Source: Endomicrobiales bacterium | GTDB taxonomy: Bacteria > Elusimicrobiota > Endomicrobiia > Endomicrobiales > JALOBY01 | Length of the DNA: 64,000 nt | Assembly (NCBI GenBank): GCA_963796955.1 | Contig: CAWCNJ010000005.1 | Location: 1 to 64,000 of the forward strand | Direction of reading: 5' to 3' | In this document: in pieces, positions 21,001-24,000 of the stretch | Layout: every line of letters starts with the position of its first letter | How positions within the stretch are numbered: the first letter of the stretch is position 1 | Position numbers: made by a program

Positions 21001-24000
21001 CGTACCCAGGTCAATGGTGACCACATCACCGTTCTTCAATTTTTTTCCGGAACGGGGAATGCCATGCACCAGTTCTTCATTTACGGAGACACAGGCAGTC
21101 GCGGGGTATCCACGGTAACCAAGGAAGGCGGGCTTCATACCTTTTTTGGAAATGGCCTCGAACGCTATATCATCCAACTCTTTTGTAGAGATGCCGGGCT
21201 TGATCGATTCAGAGATCTTTTTTAGCACTTCCGCGGCGGCTGTTCCCGCCACACGCAGCTTTTCCATATCCGACGAAGACTTCAATTCTATAAGCGGCTG
21301 ATTATTTTTCGATCGATTCACAAATGGCCTTGAAGATGCCGTCCACCGCACCGCTTCCCTGAACCTTTCTGACTATTCCGGATTTAGAATAATATTCAAT
21401 GATCGGGCTGGTTTGATCTTTGTATACCGACAGACGTTTGCGGATCGTTGTTTCATTGTCATCGGCGCGTTGAATAACTTTGCCTTTGCAGGTGTCGCAG
21501 ACATCGGCTGTTTTAGCCGGCTGTGTAATGGTGTTGTATGTCGCGCCGCAGGCAACACATACCCGGCGGCTTGCAAGGCGTTTTACTATCTCTTCGTCCT
21601 CAACAATTATCGCGACAACCTTCTCTATCTTTTTACCGGCAGAAGCTCCTTCGGATCGGGCTTCCGCAAGAGCCTTATCAAGGGCCTCGGCCTGCGGTAT
21701 AGTGCGCGGGAAGCCGTCCAGCAGGAATCCTTTTTCAGTATCCTTTCTGGTAAGGCGTTCCATGACAAGCTTAATCACCAGTTCATCCGGCACCAGCTTG
21801 CCGGCGCTCATGTAGCTTTGCAGTTCTTTTCCAAGCGCCGAACCGCTTTCGGAAGCTTCGCGGAACATATCCCCTGTGGAAATATGAGGAATGATATATT
21901 TCGCTGCTATTTTTTTTGCCTGTGTGCCTTTACCTGCGCCCGGGGGACCAACCAAGATCAAGTTCATTATATGCTCCGTTATTTAATGTTAAACCAGCGG
22001 CCTTTGATACGGCCGTCTTTTACGAAACCGTCGTAATGGCGCATGATCAAGTGAGACTCTATCTGGCCGACCGTGTCCAGCGCTACGCCGACAACGATCA
22101 GCAGAGAGGTGCCGCCGAAAAAGAAAGGCGCATTGAACAATCTTCTCATATAATCAGGCATCACGGCTATACAGGCCACGAACAGGGCGCCGCCAAGGGT
22201 TATGCGCTCGAGTATTTTCTGTATGTGCAGCGCCGTCGGCTCGCCCGGGCGTATACCGGGAACAAAGCCGCCCCATTTTTTCATATTTTCGGCAAGCTCT
22301 TTGGGGTTGAAGGCGACCGAATTATAGAAGTAGCAGAAAAATATAATAAGAGCGGCGTACACCACTTCATAGGTTACCGTTCCGCGGTTCCACCACTCGG
22401 AGACCATCTTGGCCATAGGGTTGTTCGGAAAGAACTGAGCCATGGTCAACGGGGCTGAAAGCAATGAGATCGCGAATATTACCGCGATAACGCCCGACTG
22501 GTCAACCTTCAGGGGCAGGAACGTGCTGGCACCGCCATACATTTTACGGCCTACCATTCGTTTAGCATACTGCACCGGTATTTTTCGCTGCGCGGTTTCC
22601 ACCCAGACAACGGCTGCCATTACCGCGAGCACGATCGCCAGCAAACCGACGACCGCGAAAATAGATATTTCATCCAGGCGCACCAGCCTGATAACGTCTT
22701 TTACCGCGCCCGGCAGACGGTCAACGATACCCGCGAAGATCATAAGCGAAATACCGTTGCCAATACCCATCTCGGTTATCTGCTCGCCGAACCACATAAC
22801 TACGATGGTACCGGTAATAAGCGTAATGACCGTCATGGTTATCCAGGCGGTGGTCGCATCTTCAACCACGGAAAAGCCCGAGGGGGTCGGCATGCGGCTC
22901 ATTGCCAGCGTAAGCCCGAAAGACTGTATTGCGCCCAGCAGCAAAGTGAAATAGCGTGTATATTGGTTCAGTTTCTTGCGCCCGAGATCCCCTTCTTTCG
23001 CAAGCCGGTCCAGATAGGGTATCAAATGCGCGCCCTGTAGCAAGGACATGATAATAGAGGCGTTGATGTAGGGCATGATACCCATGGAGAAAATGGACAG
23101 TTTGCTCAGCGCTCCGCCCGAAAACATATCCATAAAACCAAGCAGAGAGTTCTGGTGAGCGTCAAAGAGCGAACGTAAAGCAACCGCGTTCACACCCGGC
23201 ACGGGTATAGCGGCGCCTATGCGATAGGCGGCTATCAGGGCCAGCGTGAAAAACACGCGTTTTTTAAGTTCCGGCACTTTAAAAATATCTGCGAAGGTTT
23301 TTAGCATAATTTCGTATTATCCCATCGTTGGGACGCAAGATCTTGCGTCCCAACAAGAATATTTACTTCTTTTTAACAACCTTTTTTACACCTTTAACAA
23401 CAGGAGCAGGCCCCTTAAGCACTTCAGCTGTCCCGCCGGCCTTTATTATACAGTCAGCGGCCATTTTTGAATATGCGTGCACTTTAACGATAAGCTTTTT
23501 CTTGATCTCACCGTTGGCTAATACTTTCACGCGGTCGCCTTTGTTGACCAGTTTCGCCTTGATCAAAGCACCAAGGTCAACGGTCGAACCATTGTCAAAG
23601 GCCTTTTCAAGTGCGACAAGATTCACCGGTGTGTAGGCTTCACGCTGTTTGTTATTGAAACCGCGTTTCGGCACGCGGCGCACCAGCGGCATCTGACCGC
23701 CCTCAAAACCTATCATCTTTCCGTCGCCCGATCTGGAAGTCTGGCCCTTCATGCCCATGGTGGCCGATCCGCCGTGACCGCTGCCTTCGCCGCGGCCTAT
23801 TATTTTGCGGCGGTGGCGTGCACCGTGAGCGGCTTTCAAATTGTTTAATCCTATCATTGAACACCTCTTGTATTTGTAATTGCTTCTTGTGAAATCCCGC
23901 CGTCAACGGCGTGTGTGCTACACAGTGGCGGGATGGGTTATATAACGTCCTTATTTCTCATTTTTGCTATCTCTTCACGGGTCCGCAGGTTCAACAAACC

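Follow-up and report, generated by a model that had tools for sequence, protein, structure and literature searches.

The genes for the two proteins of the pathway that uses the signal recognition particle (SRP), ffh and ftsY, and most probably the gene for 4.5S RNA too, were almost certainly lost once, in an ancestor shared by the Elusimicrobiota and their sister phylum of 26 species. The clade, which retains SecY, SecE, SecG, SecA, SecDF-YajC, YidC and trigger factor, is also marked by changes in the SecY gate and by a SecY C-terminal motif. Newly made membrane proteins are delivered to the membrane by SRP, a machine that almost all organisms have and that is taught as universal. The loss is real, is wider than first claimed, and was in part already known. 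Elusimicrobium minutum, like Dehalococcoides, is reported to be without SRP RNA and protein (Matelska 2016, PMC4779614), and SRP homologs (one Ffh, one FtsY) are reported from few Elusimicrobia, in which SecY may compensate (Harris and Goldman 2021, PMC7987157). An earlier note on this DNA called the loss "partly anticipated in print", which is correct, but these two reports go further than that wording implies. They concern the same lineage and the same missing parts; they deal with one genome or with "some" Elusimicrobia, whereas the additions here are the absence of Ffh across 533 genomes, the sister phylum, the single origin and the naming of particular SecY residues. No published statement of a phylum-wide loss or of the sister phylum was found among open-licence PubMed Central and bioRxiv texts.

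Other bacteria are of the same type. All Leptospira, Dehalococcoides and apparently SAR86 are SRP-less (Fouts 2016, PMC4758666); like the organisms considered here they include free-living cells without Ffh, FtsY or SRP RNA, and in Leptospira an unexplained gene lies among the sec genes, as does the gene for protein X discussed below. The Elusimicrobiota fit the Leptospira/Dehalococcoides pattern, in which Ffh, FtsY and SRP RNA are absent and SecYEG, SecA and YidC are present. Those losses are reported at the level of a genus or lineage, whereas here two whole GTDB phyla are affected. The free-living exceptions known so far count as oddities of single genera; the present loss predates a phylum boundary and persists in free-living and symbiotic members alike, which shows SRP-free membrane biogenesis to be stable over deep time, and what must change for SRP to be dropped becomes testable in cultured members, at four SecY positions and the SecY tail, and with protein X.

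The secY locus of the Endomicrobiales genome

The stretch analysed (the window) is the first 64,000 nucleotides of contig CAWCNJ010000005.1 of an Endomicrobiales bacterium (assembly GCA_963796955.1; G000 below). Its secY gene (21979..23307, minus strand) encodes a 442 amino acid protein that scores 400 bits against TIGR00967 (cut-off 253.6). This is the sole SecY of the genome, and its fold is canonical in an AF2 model (pTM 0.68); its nearest relatives among named genomes are from Endomicrobiales and other Elusimicrobiota, at no more than 78% identity, and it nests among them in the tree. The surrounding S10-spc-alpha cluster is also canonical, with rplO (uL15; 23363..23857, minus strand) directly 5′ and adk (21302..21967, minus strand) directly 3′ of secY in the usual order and no gene inserted. 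On the same strand, rplX (uL24; 26796..27107) and rpmC (uL29; 27738..27944) are ordinary, and rplW (30749..31036), whose product uL23 is the SRP docking site at the ribosomal tunnel exit, has normal length and carries no anchor. SecA, SecD/F, YajC, SecE, trigger factor and LepB are present by motif or position, SecG was identified through its homolog in the closed genome G066, and YidC through Pfam; thus all the components that the earlier note listed as kept (SecYEG, SecA, SecDF-YajC and YidC) have been located.

Two features of the cluster are noted in passing. The rpsE-rplO interval is an 80 bp gap (window 23858-23937) from which rpmD (uL30) is absent; PMC7203096 mentions L30 loss in this lineage. 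The rplF, tuf, fusA and rpoB genes are frameshifted (window 24889-25459, 32868-36322 and 41491-45300), most likely through assembly indel errors, and a second, intact tuf copy lies on contig C4.

Neither Ffh nor FtsY was found in G000, where the top PF00448 match (19.7 bits) is an AAA ATPase; the Ffh M-domain profile finds nothing in G000 or G066, and the searches of G000 for SRP RNA gave a best RF00169 score of 20.3 bits (threshold 40) and no RF01854 match. The absence from this particular genome is uninformative, since it is 81% complete, has frameshifted housekeeping genes, and is wholly missing the rpe-rpsP-KH-trmD block, beside which ffh is normally found, just as the earlier note had cautioned that such a bin proves little by itself.

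Ffh and FtsY across the Elusimicrobiota

Searches with PF00448 and TIGR00959 (full-length Ffh) together found Ffh in none of 533 distinct Elusimicrobiota genomes, which represent nearly every species catalogued for the phylum and include four single-contig genomes (the total is summed from family tallies, with PF00448 as the sole profile for 18 genomes from small classes). Genome size in the affected organisms ranges from 1 to 4.6 Mb, and both free-living and symbiotic lineages are among them. PF00448 matches occur in two of 401 genomes (293 of them near-complete), and both are FlhF proteins within flagellar clusters (loci L009 in G121 and L010 in G319); a smaller sample had yielded a lone match, also an FlhF, and the larger one agrees with it. 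These are the only two of the 533 genomes with an FlhF locus, which suggests that few members of the phylum have flagellar systems. In the class to which G000 belongs, 13 of 122 genomes give TIGR00959 matches at E ≤ 0.001, which are one FlhF and twelve P-loop proteins of at most 23.5 bits, and none of the 122 exceeds the cut-off. In the other large class there are matches in two of 393 genomes, an FlhF and one true FtsY, again with 0/393 above the cut-off. The FtsY gene lies on a 1,308 bp contig (G449:C347, L019) of a bin that comprises 490 contigs, has 4% contamination and contains no Ffh. All of the organism-named homologs among the 120 listed for this protein are from spirochaetes (76% to Marispirochaeta), so that the contig is likely a contaminant, with transfer as the alternative. 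FtsY is thus present in one of 559 genomes of the two phyla.

That SRP might be present after all, either too diverged for detection or missing from the assemblies, has been weighed, as the two largest searches scored just seven (PF00448, n = 401) and four (TIGR00959, n = 393) first-look candidates per genome, RF00169 misses Bacteroides, completeness is not given for the sister genomes, and the published record contains two proteins attributed to Elusimicrobia, one Ffh and one FtsY (OGS35541 and OGS33922; PMC7987157). The same searches, however, detect the more distant paralog FlhF, and nothing emerges from the closed genome G066 when its entire sequence is searched with eight Ffh/FtsY tblastn queries (E ≤ 0.01) and with NG- and M-domain profiles. 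Among positive controls, 14 of 14 reference genomes were recovered, and Ffh and FtsY were both found in all four metagenome-assembled genomes (MAGs) from other phyla. Control genes are readily found in the Elusimicrobiota themselves: rpsP in 244 of 251 genomes (194 of the 196 near-complete ones) and YidC and SecF each in 60 of 61, so the phylum-level absence of Ffh stated in the earlier note stands in the larger sample. The position of the gene provides a further check. In 4/4 genomes of other phyla ffh adjoins rpsP; at the best-scoring 30 of the 244 Elusimicrobiota rpsP loci, mostly from Endomicrobiia, it does so in none, and in all 30 the slot is assembled and empty, with no replacement gene in it. 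The gene 5′ of rpsP is rpe in 10 of these loci and is variable in the others. The artefact explanation is largely refuted by these observations, and we give it very little credence.

The RNA is the weakest leg of the case. RF00169 finds no SRP RNA in 151 Elusimicrobiota genomes (25 candidates scored in each) or in five genomes of the sister phylum, and RF01854 finds none in five genomes; the RF00169 absence reported earlier is thereby upheld at 0/151, with a model that detects 12 of 14 control genomes and misses two, Bacteroides included. A scan for the helix-8 motif gave 20 and 7 matches, its pattern being too loose.

A sister phylum and a probable single loss

The earlier note described the loss as phylum-wide. 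The absence throughout the phylum is borne out by the 533 genomes, but the boundary is not, because a separate GTDB phylum is also affected. It comprises 26 genomes, for which there are no completeness figures, and came to light through one SecY relative whose genome (G533) is not among the 533; neither Ffh nor FtsY is found in any of the 26, whereas SecY is found in all and SecF in 24. The NCBI name attached to the SecYs nearest to those of this phylum is "Elusimicrobia bacterium", and in that wide sense it can be counted among the Elusimicrobia.

In the SecY tree, which is of one gene and midpoint-rooted, the two phyla form one clade with SH-aLRT support of 100 (98 among 70 broad representatives). 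Since this phylum, a sister by SecY, is also without Ffh and FtsY, the loss appears to be ancient and single, and one event in the common ancestor of both phyla is the simplest reading. Adjacent to the clade, on a long branch with support of 89, lies the SecY P0254; it has a GVIAV-type motif in TM7 and an ordinary TM2b and tail, and may represent an intermediate.

The SecY signature

Three parts of the G000 SecY set it and its relatives apart. The first is TM2b and the loop that follows (residues 82-94; 23026..23064, minus strand), which includes N82 and S88 as well as a two-residue insertion seen only in Elusimicrobiota; the second is the start of TM7, GVIAVIF (residues 272-278; 22474..22494, minus strand), with Ala-Val in place of E. 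coli P276-A277; and the third is a C-terminal motif R-W/Y-F-N-I/V (residues 437-442; 21982..21999, minus strand). The first two belong to the lateral gate, which is formed by TMs 2/3 and 7/8 (PMC8082313). Relative to an outgroup of 34 SecYs, mostly from Desulfobacterota, Myxococcota and Nitrospinota, the residues fixed in the clade are N82, S88, D/E269 and A275-V276, for which alignment gives S87, Q93, N270 and P276-A277 as the E. coli equivalents. The counts that follow exclude locus L154 and a second SecY of proteobacterial type (L143; G561:C100), whose contig is likely a contaminant.

N82 and S88 are invariant in all 121 SecYs of the clade and are found in none of the 34 outgroup proteins. 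Among 150 broad SecY representatives (a 50% identity set) S88 occurs in 13 and N82 in 36, and N82 was dropped as a signature of the clade because it is so common elsewhere. The GVIAVIF motif is present in 46/46 Elusimicrobiota, 24/24 sister-phylum and 0/34 outgroup SecYs, and in four of the 150 representatives; proline occupies position 275 in 135 of the 147 representatives that have a residue there, and it has also been lost from SecYs named Clostridium, Brevinematia, Deltaproteobacteria and Defluviitaleaceae. The C-terminal motif occurs in 46 of 46 Elusimicrobiota and 20 of 24 sister-phylum SecYs and in none of the outgroup, and the two broad representatives that have it are both members of the clade. 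Residues 432-442 are disordered in the lone-protein AF2 model (pLDDT below 50), and the motif may possibly serve for docking; a fold of the tail back onto SecY itself was considered and set aside, as model confidence there is low.

More basic ribosome-facing loops were likewise considered as a form of compensation and rejected, since the trend is the opposite: C4 is at +4.8 against +6.5 in the outgroup and C5 at +1.1 against +2.3, so tighter rRNA binding is not suggested. At 0.16, the stem of the clade has a length that is unexceptional for the broad SecY set. In this the ribosomal-operon SecY studied here differs from two rows labelled Elusimicrobia in the supplement of Harris and Goldman (PCI36666 and OIO07992; PMC7987157), which look very divergent, have a gap in the N-terminal third and seem to be extra copies; G000 and G066 contain no such protein. 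No literature on these SecY gate residues was found among open-licence PubMed Central and bioRxiv texts.

On the alignment and tree, the signature is genuine and dates back as far as the loss of SRP does. We infer a causal role for it in the loss, but because the link between the two rests on one branch, the signature may be ordinary lineage drift.

Membrane insertion without SRP

Polytopic membrane proteins make up a normal-looking part of the proteome, about 12% (210/1677 and 183/1485 in a crude hydropathy scan that has no SRP-bearing control), and substitutes for SRP were sought in several places. No Get3/ArsA was found in five genomes, where the profile matches span no more than 62 of the 305 positions and cover the P-loop only. 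Extended forms of uL22, uL23, uL24 or uL29 and an altered trigger factor or SecE were looked for and none was found, nor was a second SecY in G000 or G066. The latter two genomes, one of them incomplete, share 648 proteins, of which 125, 77 and 11 were sent to Pfam and the rest sorted by eye, and a small substitute may have been overlooked by this route. The comparison left one cytosolic protein without a Pfam match, X, whose gene follows secF in both. A conserved membrane protein without a Pfam match was discarded when it proved to be a relative of DUF3307 that is present in other phyla too. A small stand-alone SEC-C motif protein is encoded in G066 (L269:12497-12901).

The best reading of these results, held at a little short of an even chance, is targeting without a dedicated factor, assisted by SecA, to a retuned SecY. 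No new particle would have taken the place of SRP at the time of the loss; ribosomes making membrane proteins would reach SecYEG by routes that run parallel to SRP in E. coli, either through SecA bound to the ribosome or through membrane-held mRNAs whose translating ribosomes are bound directly by SecY or YidC, and the retuned SecY gate would itself capture the transmembrane helix, with no GTPase handover. Both routes have precedent in print: SecA acts co-translationally at uL23/uL24/uL29 (PMC8082313), and insertion that does not depend on SRP has been described in which the mRNA is targeted to SecYEG/YidC (PMC10066597).

It could instead be that cells which are small, grow slowly and translate slowly can do without any targeting factor, the SecY signature being neutral lineage history. 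E. coli is viable without SRP once translation initiation is slowed (PMC7844537), a short distance to the membrane has been proposed for Leptospira (PMC4758666), and SecY changes of the kind described above turn up singly in other lineages. The loss, however, extends over genomes of 1 to 4.6 Mb in free-living and symbiotic organisms alike, and the gate residues do not vary among the 121 clade members, as though constrained; we regard this explanation as rather unlikely.

Insertion through YidC is a further alternative. The bypass by YidC2 in Streptococcus mutans and the mitochondrial Oxa1 route resemble the present case in that membrane insertion proceeds without SRP. S. mutans YidC2 has a long basic tail. 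Neither a second YidC nor a long basic YidC tail was found here; there is one strong match per genome and a single gene in 58 of 60, and in the 24 of 30 loci that could be parsed the tail has 2-18 residues with a net charge of -1 to +4. S. mutans, on the other hand, keeps SRP and uses its second YidC to bind ribosomes, according to PMC10066597, whereas YidC here is single and short-tailed. Jag (KhpB) and KhpA, encoded beside yidC and rpsP, respectively, might tether membrane-protein mRNAs at YidC: jag follows yidC in 30/30 loci, a KH gene follows rpsP in 30/30, and Jag is reported as a partner of S. mutans YidC1 with a role of this kind suggested (PMC11261784). Both genes are, however, common in SRP-bearing bacteria according to the same review, the short and weakly charged YidC tails do not favor such a route, and in 2 of the 30 loci only the N-terminal part of Jag is matched, the L192 gene ending at 77 amino acids with no RNA-binding domains. 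A Jag-KhpA route seems distinctly improbable on this evidence. The shortened jag genes, cut to the N-terminal domain in at least one symbiont, are from small-genome Endomicrobiaceae (L192:2152-2385 and L188), and that domain is about 50% identical to its G000 counterpart.

Protein X

The gene for protein X (G000:C7:80863-81441; L330:2436-3011) lies after yajC-secD-secF and encodes a degenerate MetH activation (AdoMet-binding) domain; Emin_0561 is a named member of the family. The domain shares the fold of TM0269 (Z 17.2, with 179 residues aligned at rmsd 3.1; Foldseek E 3e-8), a stand-alone MetH activation domain of Thermotoga (PDB 1j6r; PF02965), and the likeness extends over the whole chain. 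X is found in 234 of 251 Elusimicrobiota genomes and 194 of the 196 near-complete ones, a rate like that of rpsP, with reduced symbionts included; it is single-copy, and in 41 of the 52 genomes in which both genes could be placed it directly follows secF. It was not found in five SRP-bearing genomes. SPGY, the AdoMet-site motif of MetH activation domains, is present in none of 24 Elusimicrobiota copies, whose ends, the C-terminal tail included, are basic. G066 has X and no metH, and in G022, G031 and G043 X occurs alongside a separate activation-domain gene. In its lack of SPGY, basic tail, single-copy and near-universal occurrence, and uncoupling from metH, the Elusimicrobiota protein differs from domains of the TM0269 type.

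With these properties X is the best candidate for a new adaptor that replaced SRP, since its basic ends might bind rRNA or anionic lipid; near-universality, the place beside secF, absence from the five SRP-bearing genomes, loss of SPGY and independence from metH are all in keeping with this. The sister phylum argues otherwise. In 13 of its genomes the gene after secF belongs to the X family, but the five copies read retain SPGY and a split metH is next in 3/3 checked, so that these copies are like TM0269, and look like an ordinary reactivase whose adjacency to secF was inherited. In the other subclade of the sister phylum X was not found (0/5 at E ≤ 1) and different genes follow secF in 8/8, and SRP is absent there too. 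The idea that X made the loss possible was accordingly rejected, as the protein is missing or conventional in SRP-less sister genomes; it could at most be a later aid. A replacement adaptor of this kind is therefore judged unlikely, and a targeting role for X is a minority reading. A bolder version would have the dead activation domain recruited after the ancient loss to link ribosomes or the membrane to SecY, as an adaptor that binds the former and docks on the RWFN tail of the latter, a third SRP-free co-translational targeting design in bacteria; we consider it a long shot. Judged from distribution and motif content, X is an ordinary gene, with an inherited place behind secF, that has taken on a new and apparently indispensable function in the Elusimicrobiota, and as a protein conserved like a ribosomal protein it merits study irrespective of any link to SRP.
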